DNA of 64,000 nt, taken from sequence record OM632671.1. One strand, given 5' to 3'. This DNA comes from Escherichia phage BEU50. Position numbers and translations under genes: made by a program. Of this stretch, positions 1 through 64,000 are shown one piece after another (the first letter of the stretch is position 1; every line of letters begins with the position of its first letter). A model generated the notes under the pieces. The model was not told where the DNA came from. It saw only the letters and a program-made list of their open reading frames with translations, and did no database searches.

Positions 1-882
1 TCTAAAATTGACTCATATAACAAAGTTATTAAGATGTATCATGATGGTGGTACATGTCCTACTTGTGCATCACAGTTGCACCAGGGTGATCCTATTGTCT
101 CTAAGATTACCGATAAGCTTCACGAATGTAATCACTCATTCGAGCAACTTACATGTCACAGAGATAATCTGAGTGTCCTAGTGGACGAATATAGAGCTAA
201 TGTTAAGACTAAACAGGACCTTGCATCTGATATTCGTACCAAGAAACAAGCAATGATTGCCACTATTGATAAAGCTAAGAAAGTTAAAGCTGCAATAGAA
301 CAAGCCTCGGCGGAATTTATCGACCATGCCGATGAGATAGCTTTGCTTCAAAAAGAACTTGATAAAATCATTAAAACAAAATCGGATATCGTTCTTGAAA
401 AATACCATCGCGGTATTATCACAGATATGTTAAAAGATTCTGGTATTAAAGGTGCTATCATTAAAAAATATGTGCCTCTGTTCAACAAGCAGATTAACCA
501 TTATCTTAAAATCATGGAAGCTGATTATGTGTTTTCTATTGACGAAGAATTCAATGAATCTATAAAATCACGTGGACGTGAAGAATTCAGTTATGCTTCG
601 TTTAGTCAAGGTGAAAAGGCACGTATCGATATCGCATTGTTGTTTACATGGCGAGATATCGCTGAAAAGGTCTCTGGCGTTAGAATCAATACATTAATTA
701 TGGACGAAGTCATGGATTCCGCGACTGATTCTGAAGGTATTAAAGCTATTTCAACAATTCTTAACTCTCTAACCGATGCAAACGTGTTTATAATTAGTCA
801 CAGAGACCATGACCCACAAGCTTATGGACAACATCTTCAAATGAGCAAAGTTGGACGATTTACTGTAATGAAAGCCTCTTAA
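1..882 (+). CDS. 46: Recombination endonuclease subunit gp46 (SbcC/Rad50-like), C-terminal part; 5' end lies outside the window
   Basis: Frame open from position 1; translation has the Rad50/SbcC-type signature region (FSQGEKARIDIALL ... LIMDEV); synteny directly upstream of 45.2/rpbA/45. Confidence 0.8.
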   Translation, partial: SKIDSYNKVIKMYHDGGTCPTCASQLHQGDPIVSKITDKLHECNHSFEQLTCHRDNLSVLVDEYRANVKTKQDLASDIRTKKQAMIATIDKAKKVKAAIEQASAEFIDHADEIALLQKELDKIIKTKSDIVLEKYHRGIITDMLKDSGIKGAIIKKYVPLFNKQINHYLKIMEADYVFSIDEEFNESIKSRGREEFSYASFSQGEKARIDIALLFTWRDIAEKVSGVRINTLIMDEVMDSATDSEGIKAISTILNSLTDANVFIISHRDHDPQAYGQHLQMSKVGRFTVMKAS

Positions 883-1595
883 TGAGGCTTATATTTACAA
901 TTATCGAAATGCCAACGATGCATATTAGCAGGGATCCCTATTTTATCGCAATGAGGACATTTAATTTTCTTGTCCTCTTTTTTCTTTCTGTTAGGATTTG
1001 ATTTACAGAATTTTATATGTGGCTTTAACGCCGATAACTTAGTAGTTAAGCCACAAAACGGGCAAGAATCTTCTTTCCAAATTTTCGTGGCCATGGTTTT
1101 AATTATTTTATCTTTTGTTTCTTGATCAAGTTTTACTATTTTAGGCGTTGGACCTTGTTTACAATTATCAAAATGCCAACGTCGCATGTTTCCTTCAGTT
1201 CCAGTTAAACCACAATGTGGACAGGTAATCTTTGGTTTATTTTTTGCAGACTCGGACATTTTCTTACGGGTTTCAGCAGTGAATTCTTTATTCTTTTGAA
1301 CTTCTTGATTCTTACGTCGAAGCCATCCAAATAATTTGTTTTTGCTTCTATCTGCTTTAGGAGATGATATGGTCATCATACGAGCGGCATATATTAAAGA
1401 GGCATTATCTGGATGGATTTTTACCAACAGTTGATGTGCCAAATAATGTTCTTCCGGTGTTAAGTCTACTAAGTTTAAAGCATCATCACTTCCACCTAAA
1501 CATTGTGGTATAATGTGATGACGTTCTGTATAACCATCTAAACTTCTTGATTTAGCATTGGTGATAAGCTTTTCGTATATTGAGTTATAATTCAT
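879..1595 (-). CDS. HNH homing endonuclease with three C-terminal zinc-ribbon repeats (Mob/I-TevIII-like)
   Basis: N-terminal HNH motif (TERHHIIPQCLGGSDDALNLVDLTPEEHYLAH); three CPHCG...RWHFDNCK repeats; opposite orientation to flanking early genes; paralogue of 35065..35862 and 61264..62073. Confidence 0.75.
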   Translation of the reverse strand: MNYNSIYEKLITNAKSRSLDGYTERHHIIPQCLGGSDDALNLVDLTPEEHYLAHQLLVKIHPDNASLIYAARMMTISSPKADRSKNKLFGWLRRKNQEVQKNKEFTAETRKKMSESAKNKPKITCPHCGLTGTEGNMRRWHFDNCKQGPTPKIVKLDQETKDKIIKTMATKIWKEDSCPFCGLTTKLSALKPHIKFCKSNPNRKKKEDKKIKCPHCDKIGIPANMHRWHFDNCKYKPH

Positions 1596-1640
1596 TTACT
1601 AAATCCTTATTTGATACAGCAACAGATAAATTGATAAACC

Positions 1641-1648
1641 TATTTATA
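1641..1648 (-). promoter_or_regulatory. T4-type late promoter TATAAATA (minus strand) about 45 nt upstream of the HNH gene
   Basis: Plus-strand TATTTATA is the reverse complement of the late-promoter octamer. Confidence 0.4.
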
Positions 1649-1672
1649 TTGCTTTAATCACGGAGATTTATA

Positions 1673-1864
1673 ATGGCGGAGTATTCAACCGGACAACATC
1701 TTCTCGTTGTCCCTGAAATTAAAAGATATGTTTTGACCAATACGTTTTCAGGTGAAGAACATATTGTTACTGAACAAATGCTCAAATCTGCTTTTAAAGA
1801 TGAGTATAATAAAATAATGTCTAATCGCAATTCCGCATGGACAGTTACCGACTTCTACGAATAA
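1673..1864 (+). CDS. Small early protein at the 45.2 position
   Basis: 63-aa ORF with ATG; position between 46 and rpbA as in T4. Confidence 0.4.
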   Translation: MAEYSTGQHLLVVPEIKRYVLTNTFSGEEHIVTEQMLKSAFKDEYNKIMSNRNSAWTVTDFYE

Positions 1865-8646: not shown

Positions 8647-10332
8647 ATGAAAAAAGCTGTTATTCTTGGTGCTGGACTGGCAACTCGTTTATATCCAATT
8701 ACTCACCATATTCCTAAGGTGCTTGTTAACTATAAACAAGACACTATTCTGAGCAATTTGTATACAATTTATTCTGACCTAGGCGCAGATGAAATTATTG
8801 TAGTAGTTCATTCAAAATTTGCTGAAACTGTTCGAGCTTATTGTGAGCAAGAAGGGTTCAATGTGACTATTCGTACAGTTGATGAAGCGTATGGTTCTGC
8901 TTATGCTCTTGCTAAATTACACAAAGATTTAGACGGCCATAATGTAATTGTTAACTGGTGTGATATTATTCCGGATTTTGGTTCATGGTCTTGGAATGTT
9001 AACGCAATCTATGTTAAGGGTGACGAATGTCGATATAATTTCGACGGTGAAAATATCACTAACGTAGGTTCAACAGGTGGTAATGTTGTAGGAATTTATC
9101 AGTTCAAAGACTGGGAATTCTATATGGGTTCTACTGATGAGGAAATTCATGAATACTGCAAAGGACGTGATTTCGTAGAATTCCTTTACGGCAGCGCATT
9201 CAATAAATCAGAGCTTATGAATCTAATTGATTTAGGTGATATGCCTAAACTTGAAAAAGCTCATGAAGTTCGTGAACTTAATCGTAGTTTTAATGCAGTT
9301 GAAATTGGTGAAGAAACTGTAACTAAATTCGCATTAACCGAACAGGGCCGAGCTCTTCAGAAAGATGAGATTTCGTGGTATTTGAAAGTGAAATCAGATT
9401 CAGTCCCTCAGTTAGTTTCTGTTAATGAAAATAACTTTGAAATGGAACGCATTAAAGGTAAGCCGGCATTTGAATATATTAAATCCAAATCAAGTCTTGC
9501 TCGTCCACAAATTGTTGATGCAATTTTAGATGCACTGAAATTCAGCACAGACACTTATTTTGTAAGTCCTGAAACTGTTCGTCGTGATTTCACTAAAGAA
9601 TTCTATACGAAAGTTATTGATCGTTGTGAAAGCATTCAACCATTGATTGATTCATTTGGTAAAATCACACATGTGAACTACACTAAGATTGGACGTCTGA
9701 AGCCAATGCTGAAACAAGCTTTAGAACACCTTATTCGTTATCATAACCGTTCTCAGGGACAGTACTCTGTTATTCATGGTGACCCGAACTTCAGTAATAC
9801 TATGATTACTGATAACGGCGAAGTCAAATTTATCGACCCTCGTGGATATTTTGGCGAAACCAAGATTTACGGGCCAAAATTGTACGATGAAGCTAAAGTG
9901 CTTTACGCTGTTTCAGGTTATGATGAATTCAATGCTAATCCGACCTGGGGACAGTTTACTATTGATGAAACAACTTGTAATGTGACTATTAACATCAATC
10001 CATTAGTTTACAAATATGGAAAGATGAGTTCGTTTAACGAGTATCATCATTTGGCAGTGGCAATTATCTGGATTGCATTAGGTGGTTATTTCAAGAATAA
10101 TCCACTTAAAGCGGTAGCCGCATATTATAAAGGTATGGAACTTCTGACTAAGCAATTACGTAACATGGGCCGTGTACTTCAGGACGGCTCTATTAGTTAT
10201 GACGTAGCAGAACCTGTAACGGCTACTCTGATTACAAAAAATCCTGGTAAATGGGTACTAACTGATAAAGAAACTGGTGTTTCCTATCGTCCAATCGGTG
10301 GCGATATCACTCATCAATGGGAACGAATTTGA
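8647..10332 (+). CDS. Bifunctional sugar-1-phosphate nucleotidyltransferase (N-terminal) / APH-fold anomeric sugar kinase (C-terminal)
   Basis: N-terminal MKKAVILGAGLATRLYPIT (RmlA/GlmU-type G-x-G-T-R-L motif); C-terminal HGDPNFSNTMITDNGEVKFIDPRGYFG (APH/choline-kinase Brenner motif HGDxxxxN and DxxG). Confidence 0.65.
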   Translation: MKKAVILGAGLATRLYPITHHIPKVLVNYKQDTILSNLYTIYSDLGADEIIVVVHSKFAETVRAYCEQEGFNVTIRTVDEAYGSAYALAKLHKDLDGHNVIVNWCDIIPDFGSWSWNVNAIYVKGDECRYNFDGENITNVGSTGGNVVGIYQFKDWEFYMGSTDEEIHEYCKGRDFVEFLYGSAFNKSELMNLIDLGDMPKLEKAHEVRELNRSFNAVEIGEETVTKFALTEQGRALQKDEISWYLKVKSDSVPQLVSVNENNFEMERIKGKPAFEYIKSKSSLARPQIVDAILDALKFSTDTYFVSPETVRRDFTKEFYTKVIDRCESIQPLIDSFGKITHVNYTKIGRLKPMLKQALEHLIRYHNRSQGQYSVIHGDPNFSNTMITDNGEVKFIDPRGYFGETKIYGPKLYDEAKVLYAVSGYDEFNANPTWGQFTIDETTCNVTININPLVYKYGKMSSFNEYHHLAVAIIWIALGGYFKNNPLKAVAAYYKGMELLTKQLRNMGRVLQDGSISYDVAEPVTATLITKNPGKWVLTDKETGVSYRPIGGDITHQWERI

Positions 10333-11078
10333 TACATTATCTCTACAAAACTACTAATCTTATAAACGGTAAAGTTTATTTAGGAATGCACTCGGCTGAA
10401 GAAGCCGAGCCTTTAGATTTATATAAAGGTTCTGGTAAATTATATAAAAAGGCTGAAAGGAAATACGGTAAGGAAAATTTTCTTAAAGAAATCATTTCCT
10501 ACCATAGCTCAAGAGAAGAATTAAAAATAGCTGAAAAGGCTCTAATAACATTAGACATAGTTAAAGACCCGAATTATTACAATCTTAAAACTGGTGGCGA
10601 AGGTGGTTCTGACGGGTTATCCCAAAGGTCCAAGGATAAAATTTCTAAGGCAAATAAAGGACGTTTAGTTGGTGATAAAAACCCAAGATGGGGTAAAACT
10701 TTGTCAGCTGAATCTATAGCTAGGGGTAAAGAAAAGCACAGGAGGTATGGTAAACCTGCATTACATGGTCTAAAGATTAATGTAGATGGCAAATATTATG
10801 AATCCTGTCGGGAAGCGGCTAAAGATTTGGGTATATCTTCTGCCACGATTCAAAAGAGAGTAAAATCGCCTAAATATCTTAATTATCGATATCAGGACGA
10901 AAGCAAAAATGCTCACAAGTCTCAAAAATTTGTTAAAATAAACGAAAATTACTATGAATCTCTTAGGATAGCTGAAAAGAAAACGGGTATTCCTAGAAAG
11001 CGTATAGCTGATAATATTAAAAATTCTATTGAAGGATATTGCTATGAAACCATTACATCTTTGCGTGGACGTCGATGA
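10317..11078 (+). CDS. GIY-YIG homing endonuclease (seg-like) with NUMOD-type DNA-binding repeats
   Basis: N-terminal YLYKTTNLINGKVYLGMH (GIY-YIG core); repeated KISKANKGR / GK-x-x-S-x-E motifs; overlaps neighbours at both ends as typical of free-standing HEGs. Confidence 0.65.
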   Translation: MGTNLIHYLYKTTNLINGKVYLGMHSAEEAEPLDLYKGSGKLYKKAERKYGKENFLKEIISYHSSREELKIAEKALITLDIVKDPNYYNLKTGGEGGSDGLSQRSKDKISKANKGRLVGDKNPRWGKTLSAESIARGKEKHRRYGKPALHGLKINVDGKYYESCREAAKDLGISSATIQKRVKSPKYLNYRYQDESKNAHKSQKFVKINENYYESLRIAEKKTGIPRKRIADNIKNSIEGYCYETITSLRGRR

Positions 11079-33244: not shown

Positions 33245-35065
33245 ATGATTAAAAATGAAATTAAGGTATTGTCAGATGTAGAACATATTAAGAAACGTAG
33301 TGGTATGTATATTGGTTCTTCTGCTAAAGAAGCACATGAGCGTTTTTTGTTTGGTAAATATCAACAAGTTGAATATGTTCCTGGTCTGGTTAAATTAATC
33401 GATGAGATTATTGACAACTCGGTTGATGAAGCTATTCGTACATCATTTAAGTTTGCAAATAAAATTGATGTGCAAATTAAAAATAATCAAGTTTCGGTGG
33501 AAGATAACGGACGTGGTATTCCTCAAGGTTTAGTTACCGACCAAACGGGTGAACAAATTCCTGGGCCTGTAGCAGCCTGGACTATTCCAAAGGCTGGTGG
33601 TAACTTTGGTGATGACTCTGAACGCAAGACTGGTGGTATGAACGGTGTAGGGAGTAGTTTAACTAATATCTTCTCTACGTTGTTTACAGGCATCACGTCA
33701 GATGGCGAAAATGAAATCACTGTTAACTGTTCAAACGGAATGGAAAACAAATCATGGTCTTCTAAGAAATCTAAAGGTAAAGGCACTAAAGTAATCTTCA
33801 CTCCTGATTTCTCTTCATTTGAAGAGCATAATTTATCTCAAATTTATTTAGATATTACTTTAGACAGACTTCAAACATTGGCAGTCGTTTATCCTGATAT
33901 CAAGTTCACATTTAATGGTAAAAAGGTTGATGGTAATTTTAAACGATTTGCTAAACAATTTGGTGAAGATAACATCATTCAAGAAAATGATAAAGTCTCT
34001 ATAGCATTCACAACATCACCAGATGGCTTCCGTCATTTAACTTATGTGAATAACATCCATACTAAAAATGGTGGCCATCATGTTGAATGTGTAATGGATG
34101 ATATCTGTGAACATCTTTTGCCGGGTATTAAAAAGAAATATAAGGGTATTGAAGTCACTAAAGCTCGTGTTAAAGAATGCCTCACAATGTTGATGTTTAT
34201 TAGAGACATGAGCAACATGCGTTTTGATTCTCAGACTAAAGAACGTTTAACGTCAACGTATGGTGATATTCGTAATCATATCCAATTAGATGCTAAGAAA
34301 ATTGCTCAGGCACTTCTTAAAAACGAAGCCTTGATTATGCCTATTGTTGAAGCAGCATTAGCTCGTAAATTGGCAGCAGAAAAGGCTGCAGAAACTAAAG
34401 CAGCTAAAAAGGCGACTAAAGCTAAGGTTCATAAGCATATTAAAGCTAACCAATGTGGTAAAGATGCAGATACGACATTGTTTTTAACAGAAGGTGATTC
34501 GGCAATTGGTTATCTCATTGATGTTCGTGACCGTGAACTACACGGCGGATTCCCATTACGTGGTAAGGTGATGAATAGCTGGGGTATGTCATATGCTGAT
34601 ATGATGAAGAACAAAGAGCTCTTTGATATCTGTGCTATCACAGGTCTTATTCTTGGTGAAAAGGCAGAGAATACGAACTATCGTAATATTGCAATTATGA
34701 CCGATGCCGATCATGACGGTCTTGGAAGTATCTATCCAGCTTTGCTTGCTTTCTTTAGTAATTGGCCTGAATTGTTTGAACAAGGACGTATTCGCTTTGT
34801 TAAAACGCCTGTAATTATTGCACAAATTGGCAAAACTCAAAAATGGTTTTATACTGTAGCTGAGTATGAAGAAGCTAAAGATACACTGCCTAAGCATAGT
34901 ATTCGATACATCAAGGGATTGGGCTCACTTCAGCGAGATGAATATAAAGAAATGATTCAAAACCCTGTGTACGACGTAGTTAAACTTCCTGAAAATTGGA
35001 AAGAACTATTTGAAATGCTCATGGGTAACGACCCTGAACTCCGTAAAGATTGGATGCTAGGATAA
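33245..35065 (+). CDS. 39: DNA topoisomerase II ATPase subunit, fused gp60+gp39 form (606 aa)
   Basis: GyrB-like GHKL ATPase N-terminus (LVKLIDEIIDNSVDEA), TOPRIM (LTEGDSA ... DADHDG); continuous ORF of the length of the fused 60+39 form. Confidence 0.9.
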   Translation: MIKNEIKVLSDVEHIKKRSGMYIGSSAKEAHERFLFGKYQQVEYVPGLVKLIDEIIDNSVDEAIRTSFKFANKIDVQIKNNQVSVEDNGRGIPQGLVTDQTGEQIPGPVAAWTIPKAGGNFGDDSERKTGGMNGVGSSLTNIFSTLFTGITSDGENEITVNCSNGMENKSWSSKKSKGKGTKVIFTPDFSSFEEHNLSQIYLDITLDRLQTLAVVYPDIKFTFNGKKVDGNFKRFAKQFGEDNIIQENDKVSIAFTTSPDGFRHLTYVNNIHTKNGGHHVECVMDDICEHLLPGIKKKYKGIEVTKARVKECLTMLMFIRDMSNMRFDSQTKERLTSTYGDIRNHIQLDAKKIAQALLKNEALIMPIVEAALARKLAAEKAAETKAAKKATKAKVHKHIKANQCGKDADTTLFLTEGDSAIGYLIDVRDRELHGGFPLRGKVMNSWGMSYADMMKNKELFDICAITGLILGEKAENTNYRNIAIMTDADHDGLGSIYPALLAFFSNWPELFEQGRIRFVKTPVIIAQIGKTQKWFYTVAEYEEAKDTLPKHSIRYIKGLGSLQRDEYKEMIQNPVYDVVKLPENWKELFEMLMGNDPELRKDWMLG

Positions 35066-35862
35066 TGAATTATCGTAAAATTTATGATAAACTTATCGCT
35101 GCGGCTAAAAACCGCAGCATTATTCCTAATTATACTGAGACACATCATATATTGCCAAAATCTATGGGTGGGAGTAATGATAAATCAAATCTAGTTAAAA
35201 TGACCCCTAGAGAGCATTTTATCGCCCATTTATTGCTTTATAAAATTCATAAGAACCGTTCTATGCTTATGGCTATTAGAGCTTTTTACATGGGAGCTAG
35301 AAATTCTAGAGATTATGATTGGCTTAAACAAGAATTCTCTAAAGAGCACTCTAGATTTATGAAAGAATGGATTGCTAAAAACGGCAACCCATTTAAAGGT
35401 AAAAAACATACTAAAGCAACAAGAGAATTAATGTCACATATTGCTTCACAACGTATAGGCGAATTAAATCCATTTTATGGTAAAACTCATACGCAAGAAG
35501 CAATAGATAAAATAATACAGGCCAACAAGTTATCTTGGGAGAATGGGCGAAAAGCACCTGTAAAAACAAAAGAACACCAGGATAAAATAACTAAATCAAG
35601 AATGGAAACATTTAAAACAAAAGGATTTAAACCATACACTCCTAGGTCGGAAGAAACTAAAGCTAAGACTAGAGAGTTGTATAAATCTAAATATGAAAGA
35701 AGGCCTATAAGAATCACAAGTGTAAAAACAGGTGAAACTATTGATTTTAACTATCTTTATGAATTAAGAGAGTATTTAGATATAGGGTCTTCTAATATAT
35801 TGAAAGCATTAAATAATCCTAACAGAACCTGCAAAGGTTATAAAATGTGTTGGATGTCCTAA
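35065..35862 (+). CDS. HNH homing endonuclease (MobA-like position)
   Basis: ETHHILPKSMGGSNDKSNLVKMTPREHFIAH; N-terminus MNYRKIYDKL parallels the other two HNH paralogues; ATG overlaps gene 39 stop. Confidence 0.7.
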   Translation: MNYRKIYDKLIAAAKNRSIIPNYTETHHILPKSMGGSNDKSNLVKMTPREHFIAHLLLYKIHKNRSMLMAIRAFYMGARNSRDYDWLKQEFSKEHSRFMKEWIAKNGNPFKGKKHTKATRELMSHIASQRIGELNPFYGKTHTQEAIDKIIQANKLSWENGRKAPVKTKEHQDKITKSRMETFKTKGFKPYTPRSEETKAKTRELYKSKYERRPIRITSVKTGETIDFNYLYELREYLDIGSSNILKALNNPNRTCKGYKMCWMS

Positions 35863-37310: not shown

Positions 37311-39368
37311 ATGATTATCGAAACGGCTAAAGAAACGATTATTGGTTCTGGTGGTAAGAGCACAGCATTCACTATTCAAGGCAATAGCAAAGTTTATAAG
37401 ATTTTGTCTAATGACCTTTATACAAACAAAGAATTGGCTTGTGTACGTGAATTAATCACAAACTGTATCGATGGACAAATTCTTAATGGTTGCACTGATA
37501 AGTTTATTGTTCAGGCTCCAGGTCGTTTAGACCCACGTTTTGTAGTTCGAGACTTTGGTCCTGGTATGAGTGATTTCACCATTCGAGGTAATGACGAAGA
37601 GCCAGGAATCTATAACTCATATTTTGCTTCAACTAAAACATCGAGTAATGATTTCATTGGTGGATTCGGACTCGGCTCTAAAGCTCCATTAGCATATACT
37701 GATACGTTTAACATTACTTCTTATCATAATGGTGAAGTTCGTGGTTATGTAATTTATCAAGATGACAGTGGTCCACAAATTAAGCCAACCTTTGTAGATA
37801 AGATGGGCCCTGATGACCGTACGGGTGTAGAAGTAGTTGTGCCTGTTAACCCGGAAGATTTTGAAAAGTTCGCATCTGAAATTGCGTATGTTATGCGTCC
37901 TCTCGGCGATATTGCAGAAGTTCGTGGTGTTAAAGATATCAAATACTTCCCGGAATTCGATGATGTTTATTTAGCCAAGGAAGCTCCATGGGGTGAACGT
38001 GGTAATATCATGGCTGTTTATGGTGGTATTGTATATCCAATCGGAAGTGTTATTAAAGAACAAACATGGATGATGACGCGATGCACTACAGCTTATATCA
38101 AATTCCCTATGGGTGAACTAGATGTAGCCCCGTCTCGTGAAGCATTGTCATTTGATAAACGTACAGTAGCAAATATTCATAAACGTGTTGCAGAAATTGA
38201 TGCAAAATTATTTGCTGAAGATTCTAAGAAATGGATTGATTGTGAATATCCACGTCATGTATTCCGTGAAATCGATTCTCTTGGTTACTCTGCTCGTAAA
38301 TACATGGAAAAAGCCGGTTCTAATATTGAATCACTGAAATATTCTAAAGAACAACTAACTTATTCTGAGTTGTACAAACGTTTTAAAATGGGACCTGAAT
38401 GGTGCAACCTTGGCGTTGTATATGATATCGTTTCAGATCCACGACTTCGTCGTATTCGTGAAAGCGGAAGCTCGTCTGCAACTATTTCAATTAATAGCCT
38501 GCTAGGTATTAGTCGTAAGCATATTGATATTGTTATTGACGATGTGAAAGGCCGCGTACCAATGATGCGTGCTCTGAACGATGCTTTGACTTCCACCGAT
38601 GCATCAACACTCGTTGATAAGGTTCCTTCCGGACGGGGTAGTAGCGTATTATTCATTAACCCGGAAGATGAAGTTGCAATGAAACTTCTGGAACGATTAA
38701 AGGTTATTTTCGCTGGTGATAGCCTTAAATTTTATAAGACCTCTGAAATTCTTGCATTAGTTAAACCATGGATTGAAGTTAAAGAACGTTCATCGCAGCC
38801 TCGTCCTAAATCCCCAAGTGCTCATCGGTTCTTTAAGAATGAAAACGATGTTTGGGTATCAGAAGATCTCTTTATTCCGGCCGGTAAAGCTGATGAGATT
38901 CAAGGTTATGTTGTAATTCGTAATCGTTCTAACGCTGAATGTCTTGACGCAGATAAAGGTTGGTTGAACTATGATTCTAATTTCTTGACTCGTATTGCTG
39001 ATTTGTCAGGTATTAAAGAGTTCACTGTAGTCCGTCCACAGATTGCTAAGAAAGTTCGTAAACTTGGTGAAGTAGAATGCTTGTTCGAAAAATCAATTAA
39101 TGACTATATTACGCTAATTGATAAAGTGGATTATGATGAGTATGTATCACCAAGTCGTAGAGCACAGCCTTATTTGAATCATATTACTCGTAACGAAGAG
39201 CTTAACTTCCTTAGTAAGTATTTTAGCTCTAAGAACAAAGAAATCAGTAAAGACTTTGCAAAACTCTCAACAGTAAATAATCGCTGGGGATGGAATCGAT
39301 TCGCAGGTGCTGATAACAGAGACCTGAACAGGAAGTTAGAATTGTGCTTAAAGAGGACTCTTTTGTAG
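37311..39368 (+). CDS. rIIA: rIIA-like protein (GHKL ATPase fold), possibly C-terminally truncated at a breakpoint
   Basis: N-terminal MIIETAKET...[15 protein letters not shown] (GHKL motif I-like), GGFGLGSK (G-loop); 685 aa versus about 725 aa recalled for T4 rIIA; no rIIB follows. Confidence 0.55.
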
Positions 39369-43600: not shown

Positions 43601-43608
43601 TATAAATA
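43601..43608 (+). promoter_or_regulatory. Late promoter TATAAATA
   Basis: Exact octamer 26 nt upstream of the 43634 ATG. Confidence 0.4.
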
Positions 43609-43633
43609 GGTTTATCTAACTAAAGGGGTATAT

Positions 43634-47925: not shown

Positions 47926-48399
47926 ATGTTATTGACTGGCAAATTATACAAAGAAGAAAAACAAAAATTTTATAATGTACAAAACGGTAAATGCTTAATT
48001 TGCCAACGAGAACTAAATCCTGATGTTCAAGCTAATCACCTTGACCATGACCATGAATTAAATGGACCAAAAGCAGGAAAGGTACGTGGATTGCTTTGTA
48101 ATCTCTGCAATGCTGCAGAAGGTCAAATGAAGCACAAATTTAATCGTTCTGGCTTAAAGGGTCAAGGTGTTGATTATCTTGAATGGTTAGAAAATTTACT
48201 TACTTATTTAAAATCCGATTACACCCAAAATAATATTCACCCTAACTTTGTTGGAGATAAATCAAAGGAATTTTCTCGTTTAGGAAAAGAGGAAATGATG
48301 GCCGAGATGCTTCAAAGTGGATTTGAATATAATGAATCTGACACCAAAACACAATTAATAGCTTCATTTAAGAAGCAGCTTAGAAAGAGTTTAAAATGA
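47926..48399 (+). CDS. 49: Endonuclease VII (gp49) Holliday junction resolvase
   Basis: 157 aa; GKCLICQREL...HLDHDHELNGPKAGKVRGLLCNLCN matches T4 endo VII from memory. Confidence 0.9.
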   Translation: MLLTGKLYKEEKQKFYNVQNGKCLICQRELNPDVQANHLDHDHELNGPKAGKVRGLLCNLCNAAEGQMKHKFNRSGLKGQGVDYLEWLENLLTYLKSDYTQNNIHPNFVGDKSKEFSRLGKEEMMAEMLQSGFEYNESDTKTQLIASFKKQLRKSLK

Positions 48400-49217
48400 A
48401 TGTAGTATATAAACTATCATTTATTAATAGAATTAATGCTAAAACCCCACCATATTATTACATTGGAAGTAAAACCAATTGCACTTTTGATGGAACGAAT
48501 ATTATTGATAAAAATGGTAAATTTTATTATTCGTCTTCGTCATCTTCTGAATTTCAAAAAGCCTTATTGAAAGAAACGCCGAAAGTTGAAATATTATATT
48601 TTCAATTAGTCGGAGATGAACAAATAACTAGCATTGAAGCTGAATTTCAAAAGAATATAGAAAAAGATGTATGGAATAAAGAGTATTTTAATTTAGCATA
48701 TGCTGATGGCAAATTTACGACATATGGTATTTCTCCTTCTAAAGAAACTAGAGAAAAGCAATCAATAACCATGATTAAAAGAAATCGTAATAAAGGCAAA
48801 AATCATGGATTTTATGGAAAGCATCATACTAATTTAGCTAGAAAGAAAATATCAGAAGCTTCTAAAAAATACTGGAAAGAAAATCCACATCGTGGATTTT
48901 CGCATACAAAGGAAGCTAAAATTAAAATTGGAATTTCATCTTCTATCAGGCATAAAGGAAGTGGAAATCCGATGTATGGTGTAAAACCTTGGAAAACTCC
49001 GAGCGCAATTAAATCTGGTACTTGTATATTATGGTTAAAATACGCAGAAATTTTATATGATTATTTAAGTCCAGATTTTAAAAGTAAATCATCTATTTTT
49101 GCGGATTTAAACTTACCGAAATTTAGAATTGATAATTTCATCAAAAGGTTTAAAATGGGTTGGAACCCATATTTAGACGAAGAATTTCAAAAGGATAAAT
49201 TAGAATTATGTCTTTAG
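48396..49217 (+). CDS. GIY-YIG homing endonuclease with NUMOD repeats, free-standing between 49 and nrdD
   Basis: N-terminal YKLSFINRINAKTPPYYYIGSK (GIY-YIG-like), repeated G..HTxxAxxKIS motifs. Confidence 0.6.
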   Translation: MNVVYKLSFINRINAKTPPYYYIGSKTNCTFDGTNIIDKNGKFYYSSSSSSEFQKALLKETPKVEILYFQLVGDEQITSIEAEFQKNIEKDVWNKEYFNLAYADGKFTTYGISPSKETREKQSITMIKRNRNKGKNHGFYGKHHTNLARKKISEASKKYWKENPHRGFSHTKEAKIKIGISSSIRHKGSGNPMYGVKPWKTPSAIKSGTCILWLKYAEILYDYLSPDFKSKSSIFADLNLPKFRIDNFIKRFKMGWNPYLDEEFQKDKLELCL

Positions 49218-60443: not shown

Positions 60444-61100
60444 ATGAGCACAGTTTTTAATACAAACCCAGTTGATGTTTTAAAAGAACCTATGTTTTTT
60501 GGTTCAGGTCTTGGTATTGCGCGTTATGATATTCAACGCCATAAAGTTTTTGAAGATTTGACCGAAAAGCAATTGTCATTTTTCTGGCGTCCTGAAGAAG
60601 TAAACTTAATGATGGATGCTGCACAGTTTAATAAGCTTCCTCAGTATCAGCAAAATATTTTTACTAATAACCTGAAGTATCAATCACTTTTGGATAGCAT
60701 TCAGGGTCGTGCGCCATCTGCTGTACTTATGTCATTAATTTCAGACCCGAGTCTTGATACATGGGTTGCTACATGGACTTTTAGTGAAACTATTCACAGC
60801 CGTTCATATACACATATCATGCGAAATCTTTATACTGATCCATCGAAGGTATTTGATGAGATTGTATTAGATGAAGCTATTATGAAACGTGCTGAATCTA
60901 TCGGTCGCTATTATGATGATGTTCTGATTAAAACCCGTGAATGGGAAAATGCTAAAGAATTTGTAGAACTAGCTAAAGAATCTCCTGATGCTGTCTTTCG
61001 TTTAAACCGAGCTATTAAACAAGAAGCCGAAGCTAAACGTGCTTTAATGAAATCTCTTTACCTCTGTTTGCACGTTATTAATGCCTTAGAAGCATTCGTT
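60444..61100 (+). CDS. nrdB: Ribonucleotide reductase small subunit NrdB, exon 1 (3' boundary approximate)
   Basis: R2 di-iron motifs (WATWTFSETIHSRSY, LYLCLHVINALEA); reading frame then enters the intron and stops at 61133. Confidence 0.75.
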
Positions 61101-61228
61101 TTTATGTATCTTTTGCGTAAAATGCGCCTTTAAACGGTAACGTTTATCGAAAACTCCTTTAATTGCTGGAAAGTCCTTTATAGGAAAACTAGCAGCCAAG
61201 GTTTTGCTTGCACCTTTAATTAGTATAA

Positions 61229-61236
61229 TATAAATA
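61229..61236 (+). promoter_or_regulatory. Late promoter TATAAATA inside the intron, upstream of the endonuclease ORF
   Basis: Exact octamer 27 nt upstream of the ORF start. Confidence 0.45.
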
Positions 61237-61263
61237 TGGTTATACTTTTAAGAGGATGCACAA

Positions 61264-62073
61264 TTGAACTATAGAAAAATTTGGATAGATGCTAACGGAC
61301 CTATACCTAAAGATTCTGATGGAAGAACATACGAAATCCATCATAAAGACGGTAACCGTGAAAATAATGATTTAGATAATTTGATGTGCCTTTCTATACA
61401 GGAACATTATGATATACATTTAGCTCAAAAAGATTACCAGGCTTGTCATGCTATAAAGCTTAGAATGAAATATTCTCCTGAAGAAATTTCTGAATTAGCT
61501 TCTAAAGCCGCAAAATCTAGAGAAATCCAGATTTTTAATATCCCTGAAGTACGAGCTAAAAATATTGCCTCTATTAAATCTAAGATAGAAAATGGTACAT
61601 TTCATCTTTTAGATGGTGAAATACAGCGTAAATCTAATTTAAATAGAGTTGCATTAGGTATACATAATTTTCAACAAGCTGAGCATATTGCAAAAGTTAA
61701 AGAACGCAATATTGCAGCTATAAAAGAAGGTACTCATGTATTTTGCGGTGGTAAAATGCAGTCAGAAACTCAATCAAAACGGGTAAATGACGGTTCACAT
61801 CATTTCTTATCAGAAGACCATAAGAAAAGAACATCAGCAAAAACATTAGAAATGGTTAAGAACGGGACCCATCCTGCACAAAAAGAAATCACATGTGATT
61901 TTTGTGGTCACATTGGTAAAGGTCCTGGATTTTATCTAAAACATAATGACAGATGTAAATTAAATCCAAATAGAATTCAATTGAATTGTCCATATTGTGA
62001 TAAGAAAGATTTATCACCATCAACATATAAACGATGGCACGGCGACAATTGCAAAACAAGGTTCAACGACTAG
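61264..62073 (+). CDS. Intron-encoded HNH homing endonuclease (I-TevIII-like), TTG start
   Basis: HNH motif YEIHHKDGNRENNDLDNLMCLSIQEHYDIH; C-terminal zinc ribbons CDFCGH ... CPYCDK ... WHGDNC; no in-frame ATG, start is TTG after RBS AAGAGGA. Confidence 0.75.
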   Translation: MNYRKIWIDANGPIPKDSDGRTYEIHHKDGNRENNDLDNLMCLSIQEHYDIHLAQKDYQACHAIKLRMKYSPEEISELASKAAKSREIQIFNIPEVRAKNIASIKSKIENGTFHLLDGEIQRKSNLNRVALGIHNFQQAEHIAKVKERNIAAIKEGTHVFCGGKMQSETQSKRVNDGSHHFLSEDHKKRTSAKTLEMVKNGTHPAQKEITCDFCGHIGKGPGFYLKHNDRCKLNPNRIQLNCPYCDKKDLSPSTYKRWHGDNCKTRFND

Positions 62074-62192
62074 TCTTCGGACGTAGGGTCAAGCGACTCG
62101 AAATGGGGAGAATCCCTCCGGGATTGTGATATAGTCTGGACTGCATGGTAACATGCAGCAGTTCATAAGAGAACGGGTTGAGAATTAGCGAG

Positions 62193-62711
62193 CTCAATCG
62201 AACATACGGTACCTTTAACTTCCATAAAAATATGGAAATTATGGAAGGTAATGCAAAGATTATGAAGTTCATTGCTCGTGACGAACAACTCCACCTCAAG
62301 GGTACTCAGTACATTATCCGTCAACTTCAATCTGGTACTGATGGTGATGAGTGGGTTCAAATTGCTAAAGAATGTGAACAAGAAGCAGTTGACATTTTTA
62401 TGGAAGTAAATAGTCAAGAGAAGGAATGGGCTGCACACCTCTTTAAAGACGGTACATGTCCAGGTATCAATACGCAGAGTATGTGTGCTTTTGTTGATTA
62501 CTTGACTGTGTCTCGTATGAAACAGTGTGGTTTGCCATGCCCAATCACTGATGCTCCGACCAAGCATCCGTATCCTTGGATTCGTGAATATCTGAACTCT
62601 GATTTAGTTCAAGCCGCTCCTCAGGAAGTTGAAATCAGTTCTTATCTTGTCGCACAAATTGATAATGATGTAGACCAAAATGTAATCAATTCATACAAAA
62701 AATATTTCTAA
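62193..62711 (+). CDS. nrdB: NrdB exon 2 (5' boundary approximate)
   Basis: FNFHKNMEIMEGNAKIMKFIARDEQLHL continues the R2 sequence (compare E. coli [28 protein letters not shown]). Confidence 0.75.
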   Translation, partial: LNRTYGTFNFHKNMEIMEGNAKIMKFIARDEQLHLKGTQYIIRQLQSGTDGDEWVQIAKECEQEAVDIFMEVNSQEKEWAAHLFKDGTCPGINTQSMCAFVDYLTVSRMKQCGLPCPITDAPTKHPYPWIREYLNSDLVQAAPQEVEISSYLVAQIDNDVDQNVINSYKKYF

Positions 62712-62715
62712 GGAC

Positions 62716-62737
62716 GGGACTTCGGTCCCACTTTATT
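62716..62737 (+). terminator. Stem-loop GGGAC-UUCG-GUCCC after nrdB
   Basis: Same hairpin core as at 5001..5018; followed by ACUUUAUU. Confidence 0.4.
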
Positions 62738-63148
62738 ATGAAAGATATTGCCGCCGAATATTCCTTTATTAAATATACAGAATTGGAGCTATTAGAAGAT
62801 GCAACAATTAAAACAGTTGATGTCCCTAATAAGAAAAATGTCATATACGCTATTGCTATAGATGACGAACTTGTGTATATTGGTAAAACCAAGAATTTAA
62901 AGAAACGCATTAACTATTATCGAACAGCCATAAATCGAAAAGACCAGACTTCAGATTCAAGAAAATCACTTATGATTTTGGATGCCTTAATGCAAGGCAA
63001 AAAGGTTGAATTCTGGGCCCGCCAATGTTTTGACCTTTCAGTCACCAACGAACTTGGTTCAATGACCATCGCAACAATGGACCTTGAAGAACCACTTTTT
63101 ATCAAAAAGTTCAACCCGCCTTGGAATATCCAACATAAGAAAAAGTAG
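62738..63148 (+). CDS. denA: Endonuclease II (DenA), GIY-YIG family
   Basis: 136 aa; VIYAIAIDDELVYIGKTKNLKKRINYY; T4 position between nrdB and rnlA. Confidence 0.65.
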   Translation: MKDIAAEYSFIKYTELELLEDATIKTVDVPNKKNVIYAIAIDDELVYIGKTKNLKKRINYYRTAINRKDQTSDSRKSLMILDALMQGKKVEFWARQCFDLSVTNELGSMTIATMDLEEPLFIKKFNPPWNIQHKKK

Positions 63149-63177
63149 TTTACATACCACAAGGATTGTGGTACAAT
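63148..63177 (+). promoter_or_regulatory. Early promoter (GTTTACA, 18 nt, TACAAT) for rnlA
   Basis: Upstream of the rnlA ATG. Confidence 0.4.
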
Positions 63178-63195
63178 TTAAAAAAAACTAACTGA

Positions 63196-64000
<805 letters not shown>

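Follow-up and report, generated by a model that had tools for sequence, protein, structure and literature searches.

Two Mob-class genes and I-TevIII: the three HNH homing endonuclease genes of a T-even phage window are very probably separate genes rather than one paralogous family

The fingers of the I-TevIII homing endonuclease of phage RB3 have been demonstrated to bind zinc and to take part in DNA binding, and cleavage is carried out by a dimer of the enzyme (PMC1865063). For I-TevIII, an arrangement in which the ribosome-binding site is sequestered has also been published (PMC2988022, section 12), and promoters of T4 intron endonucleases have been mapped by primer extension (PMC2988022). 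Nicking or cleavage of an endonuclease-free allele, together with over-representation in the progeny of mixed infections, is found in the literature for MobE and MobA only. Studies of phage homing endonucleases revealed that binding modules are repeated and exchanged between families by domain shuffling (PMC10448857).

We compared these systems with three HNH genes in a 64,000-nucleotide stretch of Escherichia phage BEU50 (OM632671.1), referred to below as the window. An earlier note on this DNA had read the three as paralogs that share an N terminus and an HNH core. The reading frames themselves were borne out: ORF1 at 879..1595 on the minus strand (238 aa), ORF2 at 35065..35862 on the plus strand (265 aa), and ORF3 at 61264..62073 on the plus strand (269 aa, with a TTG start). 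The common N termini are also real (MNYNSIYEKL in ORF1, MNYRKIYDKL in ORF2, and MNYRKIWIDA in ORF3), as is the HNH core in all three (ERHHIIP…N…EH…H, ETHHILP…, and EIHHKDGN…N…EH…H, respectively), and CxxC…H…C repeats do occur in two of the three proteins, with three copies in ORF1, two in ORF3, and zero in ORF2. The HNH superfamily is characterized by a beta-beta-alpha core bearing a catalytic His that acts as general base, an Asn, and a His that binds metal, and this is what we found from the invariant residues and model fold of ORF1 and from the Pfam HNH_3 match of ORF3. In the Pfam search, ORF1 and ORF2 stayed below the HNH cut-offs (HNH_5 at E 0.069 for ORF1; HNH at 18.9 bits against a cut-off of 21.4 for ORF2), so the HNH assignment of these two rests on the motif and on their similarity to Mob proteins. 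The trio is genuine but ordinary for T4-like phages: one member, I-TevIII, is characterized, and two are uncharacterized Mob relatives. Three joins in the window's assembly have no counterpart in any known phage, so its combination of the three genes calls for caution; all three do occur together in the complete genomes of a20 and NRG-P0074. The same note had added two GIY-YIG genes to the homing endonuclease count. Two seg-like GIY-YIG genes are indeed present (10317..11078 and 48396..49217), but the GIY-YIG family in the window comes to three with denA (62738..63148), which encodes endonuclease II and is not a homing gene.

ORF1 encodes a free-standing homing endonuclease of the Mob HNH class, whose C-terminal part bears three CCHC fingers. 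Its HNH (beta-beta-alpha-metal) head (1371..1595, minus strand; about aa 1-75) aligns to ORF2 and to the T4 Mob proteins, and BLASTP of ORF1 against T4 gave MobE at 6e-28, MobB at 4e-25, MobD at 3e-24, and MobC at 1e-18. BLASTP and phrog_655 both place a Mob-type N-terminal HNH domain in ORF1 and in ORF2, and each of these genes is free-standing and variably present with exact boundaries, ORF1 between genes 46 and 45.2 and ORF2 after gene 39. Residues H26, H27, N41, H50, and H54 of ORF1 were invariant among 58 homologues, and the AlphaFold2 model (pLDDT 92) has strands at aa 24-27 and 42-45 followed by a helix at aa 47-60. Among Mosigvirus copies dN/dS was 0.011-0.021, revealing strong purifying selection; the copy of phage ESCO47 carries H27Y in the catalytic HH pair, so some ORF1 copies may be inactive. 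A search of solved structures with the ORF1 sequence gave no significant match (at E 0.14, the C-terminal zinc site of LapB came closest), nor did structure searches with the full-length model. We also considered ORF1 as a member of the I-TevIII family and rejected this, as its head is of Mob type, it has no Pfam HNH_3 match, and phrog_12324 covers aa 164-235 only. Its fingers do match those of I-TevIII at 1e-10, and the BLASTP match between ORF1 and ORF3 is confined to this region (37% identity over 76 aa). ORF1 joins an HNH head of T4 Mob type to a NUMOD3-like helix and to three CCHC fingers of I-TevIII type.

The repeats had been described as zinc ribbons, a fold in which two beta-hairpin zinc knuckles make up a sheet of three strands and the ligands are usually four Cys. 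While the CxxC…H…C repeats are there, the ribbon fold is not what the model gives: the pattern is CxxC-N12-16-H-N3-C, modeled as a ββα CCHC finger in which a beta hairpin is followed by a helix bearing the His and the last Cys, and zinc ribbon is probably the wrong fold name for the repeats of ORF1 and ORF3. Pfam zinc-ribbon matches were all below cut-off and covered the CxxC knuckle alone, and no Pfam family captures the fingers; the best structural matches, which were weak, were to C2H2 arrays (CTCF, E 0.02) and to the Rad18 UBZ finger (TM 0.80 over 31 aa). In ORF1, finger 1 (CPHC…H…C; 1161..1223, minus strand; aa 125-145, CPHCGLTGTEGNMRRWHFDNC) is a beta hairpin plus helix in the model, finger 2 lies at 1005..1064 on the minus strand (aa 178-197, CPFCGLTTKLSALKPHIKFC), and finger 3, whose four ligands are all invariant in the 58 homologues, lies at 897..959 on the minus strand (aa 213-233, CPHCDKIGIPANMHRWHFDNC). 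Fingers 2 and 3, with an NPNR linker between them, match the two-finger module of I-TevIII (61894..62052, plus strand; aa 211-231 and 242-263). Finger 2, in the region where the protein varies most, is exchanged as a cassette in phage mar005p1, whose ORF1 orthologue is otherwise identical, which suggests retargeting via cassette exchange at a fixed genomic site. When we searched with the two-finger module of ORF1, 1,497 cluster representatives matched, in arrays of one to eight copies; in the best 150 of these 1,497, GIY-YIG heads were the commonest partner, Mob-HNH and HNH_3 heads were also found, and some arrays were headless. We tentatively raise the possibility, doubtful as it stands, that the I-TevIII-type CCHC finger is a portable, repeatable DNA-reading unit and that these endonucleases are natural zinc-finger nucleases. 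The recognition system would be decodable if every finger were to read a defined step along glucosylated hydroxymethylcytosine DNA.

Compared with RB69-type genomes, the ORF1 insertion at the junction of genes 46 and 45.2 spans 872..1677 (806 bp replacing 67 bp; BLAST breakpoints 871/872 and 1677/1678; the empty RB69 junction reads …GTTGGACGATTTACTGTAATGACTGTTTCATAAACGCTTTAACACG…). It changes the last three codons of gene 46 and supplies a new start codon to gene 45.2, and its boundaries were identical in the Mosigvirus genomes compared, six with the insertion and four lacking it, in which the anchors lie 835 and 96 bp apart, respectively. Orthologues of ORF1 with 44-68% amino acid identity occupy the same junction, also in antisense, in five other T4-like lineages, represented by Dhakavirus Bp7, Yersinia phage P8, ZCEC15, Klebsiella phage RCIP0020, and Cronobacter phage leN. 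At the left edge, a hairpin (AAGCCTC-TTAAT-GAGGCTT, 872..890) encloses the overlapping stop codons of gene 46 (880-882, plus strand) and ORF1 (879-881, minus strand). It folds at -17.9 kcal/mol (z -5.9) and may be a two-way terminator or an RNA stabilizer; Bp7 and P8 have a counterpart (z -3.1 and -3.5), ZCEC15 has another short stem, and the two most distant orthologues have none. Around ORF1, a scan for intrinsic terminators called no U-tract terminator, and a scan for sigma-70-type promoters remained at chance level. At the right edge, a MotA-box-like GCTTTA, 12 nt, and TATAAT (1651..1674, plus strand) can be read as a candidate middle promoter retained at the insertion edge; its -10 element overlaps the new 45.2 ATG (1673-1675), and the GCTTTA/TATAAT motif is also found in the non-carrier alleles of RB69 and T4. 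Mosigvirus carriers and non-carriers showed no extended shared flank haplotype, the fixed differences being restricted to the junction, so that no recent co-conversion can be seen and the comparison did not place the target site. The operator of I-TevI resembles its homing site and overlaps its promoter. An ORF1 operator resembling a homing site was sought and rejected: the promoter and leader aligned to the empty RB69 allele scored 8 against a shuffle mean of 9.1, and matched only the retained GCTTTAA-CACG box.

The T4-type late promoter is characterized by TATAAATA at about -10, no -35 element, and a properly oriented gene downstream, and transcription from it requires gp55, gp33, and gp45. 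As had been proposed, this sequence precedes ORF1 and ORF3: it lies 45 nt before the ORF1 ATG (1641..1648, minus strand; predicted from the exact motif and a positional test) and 27 nt before the ORF3 TTG (61229..61236, plus strand; exact motif, with the upstream 150 nt identical to RB3 save 1 nt). The ORF1 element could nevertheless be a chance match in AT-rich sequence, leaving the gene silent or expressed only by read-through, and the motif is indeed not enriched in the window, where six copies were found against 8.3 expected. All six, however, lie 23-45 nt upstream of an ORF start, those of the tail-fiber genes 34 and 36 among them. In the positional test, a site had to lie 20-50 nt upstream of the first start of a same-strand ORF with 60 aa or more; 4.2% of positions do so, and the resulting P of ~6e-9 for six out of six makes the late promoters credible. 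The ORF1 element is identical in the six endonuclease-carrying Mosigvirus genomes. It is also exact in Bp7 and ZCEC15, and three divergent lineages have the exact element despite their differing non-coding surroundings; in Yersinia phage P8 it reads CATAAATA, while the two most distant orthologues, with CTTAAATA and CCTAAATA in its place, lack the exact match and to that extent favor chance. Since ORF1 is antisense to every neighboring gene, early and middle units offer it no sense read-through transcript. We consider a chance match unlikely and infer that ORF1 is transcribed late from its own promoter. The predicted transcript would carry the Shine-Dalgarno sequence AAGGA (1604..1608, minus strand) within the conserved leader …GCTGTATCAAATAAGGAT…. 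A stem that would sequester the ribosome-binding site of ORF1, and whose 5' arm precedes the late start, has a fold energy of -17 kcal/mol (z -2.4; 5 of 200 shuffles as good) and is suggestive only.

ORF2 is a free-standing Mob-class HNH endonuclease with NUMOD3 repeats (Pfam 4.7e-9) as its DNA-binding tail and without fingers. Against T4, BLASTP gave MobB at 5e-28 and MobE at 4e-26, within a MobB/C/D/E range of 4e-14 to 5e-28. Relative to the non-carrier allele of phage NHEP36, the insertion spans 35057..35856 on the plus strand (800 bp), with a direct repeat of 7 bp, TTGGATG, at its two boundaries (35050-35056 and 35850-35856); the ORF finder extends the frame upstream to a TTG at 35050. The ATG overlaps the gene 39 stop (TAATG, 35063-35067), and the 3' end uses the original last codons of gene 39 (W-M-S-stop) and its terminator. 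Upstream of ORF2 there is no TATAAATA, the best nearby site being TATAAAGA at 34943, and the gene is likely to be translationally coupled to gene 39. ORF2 was also considered as the orthologue of T4 mobA and rejected, as the first ~70 residues alone match and the insertion point at gene 39 differs.

ORF3 is I-TevIII, the HNH endonuclease of the nrdB group I intron. It is identical to RB3 I-TevIII at 266 of 268 residues, differing by D23Y and A265T, and it matched phrog_12324 at E 2e-193 and Pfam HNH_3 at 48.7 bits against a cut-off of 24.8. The TTG start is common to ORF3, RB3, and NRG-P0074, and the region has 95.7% nucleotide identity to RB3 with the same flanks, promoter, and start codon. 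The Rfam search of the whole window at gathering thresholds gave zero matches, including for the nrdB group I intron, which the ORF splits; the intron identity thus rests on the 95.7% nucleotide identity to the annotated RB3 intron. Fold energies predict an RNA stem (61209..61260, plus strand) in which the ribosome-binding site AAGAGGA (61250-61256) is base-paired to a stretch that precedes the late start: the segment 61205-61280 folds at -15.3 kcal/mol (z -2.7), while 61243-61280 folds at -0.7 kcal/mol. Late I-TevIII transcripts would be without the 5' arm of the stem, and both the promoter and the hairpin agree with the published arrangement.

We hypothesize that, late in a mixed infection, each of the three enzymes would use its C-terminal module to bind a long asymmetric site in a co-infecting relative without the gene, at or beside the place of its own insertion. 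The HNH head would then nick the DNA, in the manner reported for MobA and MobE, or, like I-TevIII, make a double-strand cut as a dimer. Through recombination repair by the phage, the broken genome would receive a copy of the endonuclease gene together with flanking DNA close by, and the carrier genome would be immune since the insertion replaced or split its target site. In this scheme it is the cleavage and the target site that we infer. ORF1 and/or ORF2 might instead no longer be mobile, whether as decaying remnants or as genes domesticated for another role, for example competitor-phage exclusion, a DNA-binding regulator, or a promoter/terminator carrier for the flanking genes. The ORF1 insertion provides gene 45.2 with its start codon and with its ribosome-binding site, and it also brings a MotA-box-like promoter and the hairpin across the gene 46 stop; embedded signals of such a kind favor retention (PMC2988022); the ESCO47 H27Y copy and the lack of a visible co-conversion haplotype point the same way. 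A dN/dS of ~0.02 and intact catalytic residues speak against decay, however, homing predicts just such a patchy presence at a single exact site in several T4-like lineages, and excluding competitors follows from homing rather than being an alternative to it; we judge a loss of mobility quite improbable.

As to whether the three homing genes form a single family, the earlier note had proposed one that would have to align beyond the HNH core. This was so for two of the three pairs: ORF1 and ORF2 align over ~120 N-terminal residues (BLASTP 9e-26) with unrelated C termini, and ORF1 and ORF3 match in the fingers, but ORF2 and ORF3 share ~55 residues of the HNH core and nothing more (E 0.003). Profile searches assigned ORF1 (E 6e-67) and ORF2 (E 1e-56) to phrog_655 and ORF3, which had no phrog_655 match, to phrog_12324 and Pfam HNH_3, so that the single family did not hold. 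The genes are present in 13 of 161 (ORF1), 27 of 208 (ORF2), and 83 of 604 (ORF3) related phage records. Each has its own insertion and its own pattern of presence and absence, which suggests that the genes were acquired independently and did not arise by duplication inside this genome. The expansion of one HNH/zinc-ribbon family within this phage genome is highly improbable: the MNYxKI N terminus and HNH core common to all three, the collinear full-length hhalign match of the ORF1 family to I-TevIII profiles, which reaches the HNH head (probability 98%, E 2e-13), and the weak ORF3 matches to MobC (BLASTP 3e-4) and ORF2 favor it, but the families differ, Pfam HNH_3 is matched by ORF3 only, ORF2 lacks fingers, each gene has distinct closest relatives in other phages, and I-TevIII has ~96% nucleotide identity to copies in another genus. 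We therefore take it as very likely that this T-even phage window holds three separate HNH homing endonuclease genes, two of Mob class plus I-TevIII.

The payoff is modest: two uncharacterized Mob-class homing endonucleases with exact insertion anatomy, alongside the textbook I-TevIII. ORF1 is a clear case of module exchange between free-standing and intron-encoded endonucleases, and it keeps a single insertion site, antisense orientation, and late promoter across several T4-like lineages. It suits the question of how HNH nickases drive homing, with a20 and NRG-P0074 as carriers and RB69 as non-carrier, as well as the question of how arrays of several fingers recognize modified phage DNA. For annotation, the case teaches that a common N-terminal motif and common fingers do not make one gene family.

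The closest known systems are the T4 Mob proteins, MobE and MobB above all. ORF1 and ORF2 have the same head (MNYxxIY…E.HHI.P…GG.D..NLV.LT..EH..AH; 36-54% identity, E 1e-14 to 6e-28), are likewise free-standing with conserved genes on both sides, and carry a C-terminal DNA-binding region particular to the family. ORF2 lacks a promoter, as do mobA, mobC, mobD, and mobE (PMC2988022), but it follows an unsplit gene 39, whereas T4 mobA lies between the split genes 39 and 60. ORF1 differs from the T4 genes in its CxxC…H…C fingers, which no T4 Mob protein has, in its 46/45.2 site, which is empty in T4, and in being antisense to its neighbors with its own late promoter. T4 segD is also oriented against its surrounding genes (PMC2988022); it is a GIY-YIG gene that has no promoter of its own and is therefore thought to be barely expressed, while ORF1 has a consensus late promoter directly upstream. 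With RB3 I-TevIII (Robbins et al. 2007, PMC1865063), ORF3 is the same enzyme in the same intron, with the same TTG start and promoter. ORF1 resembles this enzyme in the finger-NPNR-finger module and, at the profile level, in the order of HNH head, helical linker, and fingers, but it has a Mob-type head, three fingers instead of two, a free-standing gene, and another target. Finally, the HNH endonucleases of ICP1 (Barth et al. 2023, PMC10448857) join an HNH head to a C-terminal zinc-finger DNA-binding domain as ORF1 does, although they belong to another phage lineage and their heads are of HNH_3 type. The domain shuffling described for ICP1 fits the arrays of one to eight fingers on GIY-YIG, Mob-HNH, and HNH_3 heads, and the likeness is one of architecture.

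The three HNH ORFs claimed by the earlier note were all found where it had placed them (ORF1, 879..1595, minus strand; ORF2, 35065..35862, plus strand; ORF3, 61264..62073, plus strand), and each has an HNH core and the MNY N-terminus that had been described, which reads MNYNSIY in ORF1, MNYRKIY in ORF2, and MNYRKIW in ORF3. The same note had treated them as one paralogous family, which the pairwise comparisons did not bear out. ORF1 and ORF2 aligned at 9e-26 over the N-terminal nuclease part (the head), and ORF1 and ORF3 aligned at 1e-10 over the fingers only (ORF1 aa 163-236 with I-TevIII aa 196-266), a match that contains the NPNR linker between two fingers. Alignment beyond the HNH core was thus obtained for these two pairs but not for ORF2 and ORF3, which share about 55 residues of the core at 0.003.

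The affiliations of the three proteins follow the same division. PHROG 655 "homing endonuclease" was matched by ORF1 (E 6e-67) and ORF2 (1e-56), and both resemble the T4 Mob proteins (ORF1: MobE 6e-28, MobB 4e-25, MobD 3e-24, MobC 1e-18; ORF2: MobB 5e-28, MobE 4e-26), a similarity confined to the N-terminal ~120 residues. ORF3, which matched Pfam HNH_3 and PHROG 12324 but not PHROG 655, is I-TevIII: 266 of 268 residues are identical to the characterised RB3 protein (differences D23Y and A265T), it lies in the same nrdB intron as in RB3 (95.7% nucleotide identity), and its TTG start is common to RB3 and NRG-P0074.

Three CxxC…H…C repeats were found in ORF1 (aa 125-145, 178-197, and 213-233), two in ORF3 (aa 211-231 and 242-263), and none in ORF2, so the earlier count of two repeat-bearing genes stands, while the zinc-ribbon fold assigned to the repeats probably does not. 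In an AlphaFold2 model of ORF1, built from a 58-sequence alignment and confident (mean pLDDT 92), the head has a beta-beta-alpha fold, the linker is helical, and there are three units in which a helix comes after a beta hairpin; as modeled, the repeats are classical beta-beta-alpha CCHC fingers and not zinc ribbons. The whole model gave no significant match in structure libraries. A profile of the 58 ORF1 homologues aligned collinearly with I-TevIII (hhalign probability 98%, E 2e-13), with the confidence coming mostly from the MNY/HNH head and the terminal fingers. ORF1-type fingers are absent from all five T4 Mob proteins. As judged from these alignments, ORF1 is a bridge between the other two, because it joins a Mob-type head, as in ORF2, to an I-TevIII-type DNA-binding tail, as in ORF3, and the apparent pattern is one of modular shuffling, not of a three-member paralog family.

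The fingers recur well beyond these proteins. ORF1 has 2,524 homologues, with at least one finger in all of the best 120, and the two-finger module alone matched 1,497 cluster representatives, single proteins matching in as many as 8 stretches. When the best 150 of these 1,497 were sorted heuristically by motif and HMM, at least 63 had GIY-YIG-like heads (several more fall within 32 unclassified proteins), 38 had Mob-HNH heads, 8 had HNH_3-like heads, and 9 had fingers without another domain. Pfam spot checks confirmed the GIY-YIG head of P0122 and, weakly, that of P0121, as well as the HNH_3 heads of P0128 and P0147; no Pfam family captures the finger itself. Five to eight tandem CCHC fingers occur in the metagenomic proteins P0031, P0092, P0121, and P0122; P0031 combines seven fingers with a head that is GIY-YIG-like by motif (no Pfam call), and the head of P0092 is Mob-HNH. 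Heuristic as the sort is, the pattern of a module apparently shuffled among endonuclease heads is clear.

ORF1 lies in antisense orientation in the order 46, ORF1, 45.2, rpbA, 45, 44. Relative to RB69, the insertion (window 872-1677, 806 bp) stands in place of 67 bp, turns the three terminal codons of gene 46 (T-V-S) into K-A-S, and gives gene 45.2 a new start (ATGGCGGAG versus ATGGAG). Its boundaries are exactly shared among six carrier and four noncarrier Mosigvirus genomes (835 versus 96 bp between anchors), and in these ten genomes fixed differences between carriers and noncarriers occur only at the junction, the polymorphisms in the flanks being mosaic. Gene 46 and ORF1 have overlapping stop codons (880-882 and 879-881, respectively), which lie in a TTAA inside a stable hairpin, AAGCCTC-TTAAT-GAGGCTT (-17.9 kcal/mol, z -5.9), which was also found in the Bp7 and P8 orthologues. 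At the other end, a plus-strand MotA-box-like GCTTTA-N12-TATAAT abuts the predicted ORF1 late promoter, with its -10 element overlapping the new 45.2 ATG; the same middle-promoter-like motif is present in the empty alleles of RB69 and T4.

The T4-type late promoter motif TATAAATA is no more frequent in the window than expected by chance (6 found, 8.3 expected), yet the copies are placed very nonrandomly: each of the six is followed, at a distance of 20-50 nt, by the first start codon of a same-strand ORF of at least 60 aa, and since only 4.2% of positions qualify, P is about 6e-9. One copy precedes ORF1 (1648..1641, minus strand, 45 nt before the ATG) and one ORF3 (61229..61236, plus strand, 27 nt before the start). 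The other four precede tail-fibre genes (56055 and 50999) and two small ORFs (78 and 70 aa); from their positions we read the four as genes 34, 36, soc, and rI.1, each an expected late gene. An identical 16-mer, TATAAATAGGTTTATC, is shared by the predicted late promoters of ORF1 (1633-1648, minus strand) and the 70-aa ORF after tk (43601-43616, plus strand), presumably rI.1. No TATAAATA was found for ORF2, the closest site being TATAAAGA, 122 nt upstream.

Conservation agrees with the earlier proposal of late promoters before at least two of the genes, and sequence and comparison together make those predicted for ORF1 and ORF3 well supported. The six carrier Mosigvirus genomes all have the ORF1 motif and leader unchanged, even ESCO47 with its strongly diverged downstream genes. 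Bp7 (-44) and ZCEC15 (-41) have the exact motif, P8 has CATAAATA, and the two orthologues at the greatest distance have CTTAAATA or CCTAAATA; each orthologue keeps the leader …TATC…GTATCAAA…AAGGA after it. Since ORF1 is antisense to all of its early and middle neighbours, no source of a sense transcript is evident except a promoter of its own, and late-only expression would follow. Of 150 nt in the ORF3 promoter region, 149 are the same in RB3. In the longer transcript, folding pairs the ribosome-binding site (-15.3 kcal/mol), a fold that is missing when the transcript begins past the promoter (-0.7 kcal/mol).

ORF1 was found in only 13 of 161 related phage records. Full-length orthologues (44-68% aa identity) occur in Dhakavirus Bp7, Yersinia phage P8, ZCEC15, Klebsiella phage RCIP0020, and Cronobacter phage leN, all five at the same 46/45.2 junction and in the same antisense orientation; three-finger relatives at 32-40% adjoin pseT, head-completion genes, or nrdA at other loci. 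Mosigvirus copies differ at 9-15% of synonymous sites and at only 1-2 residues (dN/dS 0.011-0.021), and the 58 homologues show no variation at H26, H27, N41, H50, H54, or the four finger-3 ligands. The patchy occurrence, fixed junction, low dN/dS, and invariant residues are evidence for ORF1 as a putatively functional, site-specific mobile gene. Two natural copies stand apart. In that of ESCO47 (L016, 1479-2195), the catalytic HH pair is changed by H27Y, and activity may be lost; in that of mar005p1, also a Mosigvirus (L017, 1479-2195), aa 1-155 and the C-terminal end are unchanged and the finger-2 cassette (about aa 157-225) is replaced, with a whole-gene dN/dS of 0.43.

Of 208 related records, 27 carry ORF2. 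Measured against the NHEP36 phage's empty allele, its 800-bp insertion is flanked by a 7-bp direct repeat, TTGGATG, and alters the end of gene 39 from …DWMS to …DWMLG; the original W-M-S-stop codons now end ORF2, and the terminator hairpin that belonged to gene 39 serves ORF2 as well. The start codon of ORF2 overlaps the stop of gene 39 (TAATG), and its C-terminal part has NUMOD3 repeats; by eye, this tail resembles the MobB repeats. Orthology with T4 mobA was rejected: the match ends after ~70 N-terminal residues, and in T4 mobA separates the split genes 39 and 60, while gene 39 is unsplit here (606 aa).

Two GIY-YIG genes had been noted in the window; the family has three members. A seg-like gene at 10317-11078 (plus strand, 253 aa), with an I-TevI-type DNA-binding domain and NUMOD1 and NUMOD3 motifs, lies among sugar-nucleotide/DNA-modification genes downstream of the DNA polymerase gene, its start overlapping the end of the preceding gene. 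Another, at 48396-49217 (plus strand, 273 aa) between gene 49 and nrdD, has a VYKLSF…YYYIGSKT head and NUMOD3, matches phrog_7504 at 1e-33, and is labelled "homing endonuclease" in Yersinia phage fPS-2. The third, denA (62738-63148), encodes the non-homing endonuclease II.

The first ~37 kb of the window are of the RB69-like T-even type (genus Mosigvirus), and 600-2000 is 100% identical to Escherichia phages a20 (OQ067374) and NRG-P0074 (PQ480333). Because the complete genomes of these two phages contain all three HNH genes at 99-100% identity, their co-residence occurs in nature. The window itself is not collinear with any known phage record and looks mosaic, with joins at 39347/39348, ~50206/50212, and ~57723/57727. 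At the first, rIIA (37311-39368) is truncated, breaking off at ~39.35 kb, and is followed by a Tequatrovirus-like regB…tk…nrdC…49…nrdD block (about 96% to fPS-2 and Killian), whose usual place is upstream of gene 46. At ~50.2 kb nrdD is cut after 361 aa and tail-fibre genes come next; at ~57.7 kb about 5.7 kb with genes 59, 32, frd, and td, a stretch that includes essential genes, is absent between gene 33 and nrdA. These joins suggest that the source is chimeric or misassembled, or a rearranged defective genome. In nrdB exon 1, some 25 nt before the intron, a 1-nt deletion at ~61093 (versus RB3, T4, and NRG-P0074) shifts the reading frame; it may reflect a sequencing error or be a genuine lesion near the region that I-TevIII cleaves. 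Over ~60900-64000, identity to NRG-P0074 changes abruptly: it is 71-86% in nrdA and the 5' part of nrdB, climbs to 98-100% at a point about 200 nt before the intron, and remains high through denA to the window end. This switch looks like a recombination boundary of the kind expected beside an intron from homing-associated exchange between genera.

Much of this agrees with known systems. I-TevIII is already fully characterised, and its CX2CX12-13HX3C zinc fingers, with which our assignment for ORF1 agrees, bind zinc and are needed for DNA binding (PMC1865063). Mob-class endonucleases are known as a class, with single-strand nicking and homing reported for MobE and MobA, and GenBank already labels ORF1 and ORF2 "homing endonuclease" or "Mob-like HNH homing endonuclease." The predicted late-only timing of ORF1 is the usual one for T4 endonucleases, for which only middle or late endonuclease-specific promoters, and none early, have been reported; the ORF3 fold is the published I-TevIII regulatory design; ORF2 resembles the "promoterless cassette" class of mobA, mobC, mobD, and mobE; and the middle-promoter-like motif kept at ORF1 fits the published theme that an endonuclease gene, once inserted, has to bring along or leave intact the transcription signals of its host (PMC2988022). 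Modular shuffling of homing endonucleases has been described (PMC1865063; PMC10448857), and HNH heads with C-terminal zinc fingers are on record in other phages (PMC10448857). What appears to be new, and is descriptive, is the exact insertion anatomy of both free-standing genes, the conserved antisense residence of ORF1, with its predicted late promoter, at 46/45.2 in several T4-like lineages, and the joining of a Mob head to I-TevIII fingers.
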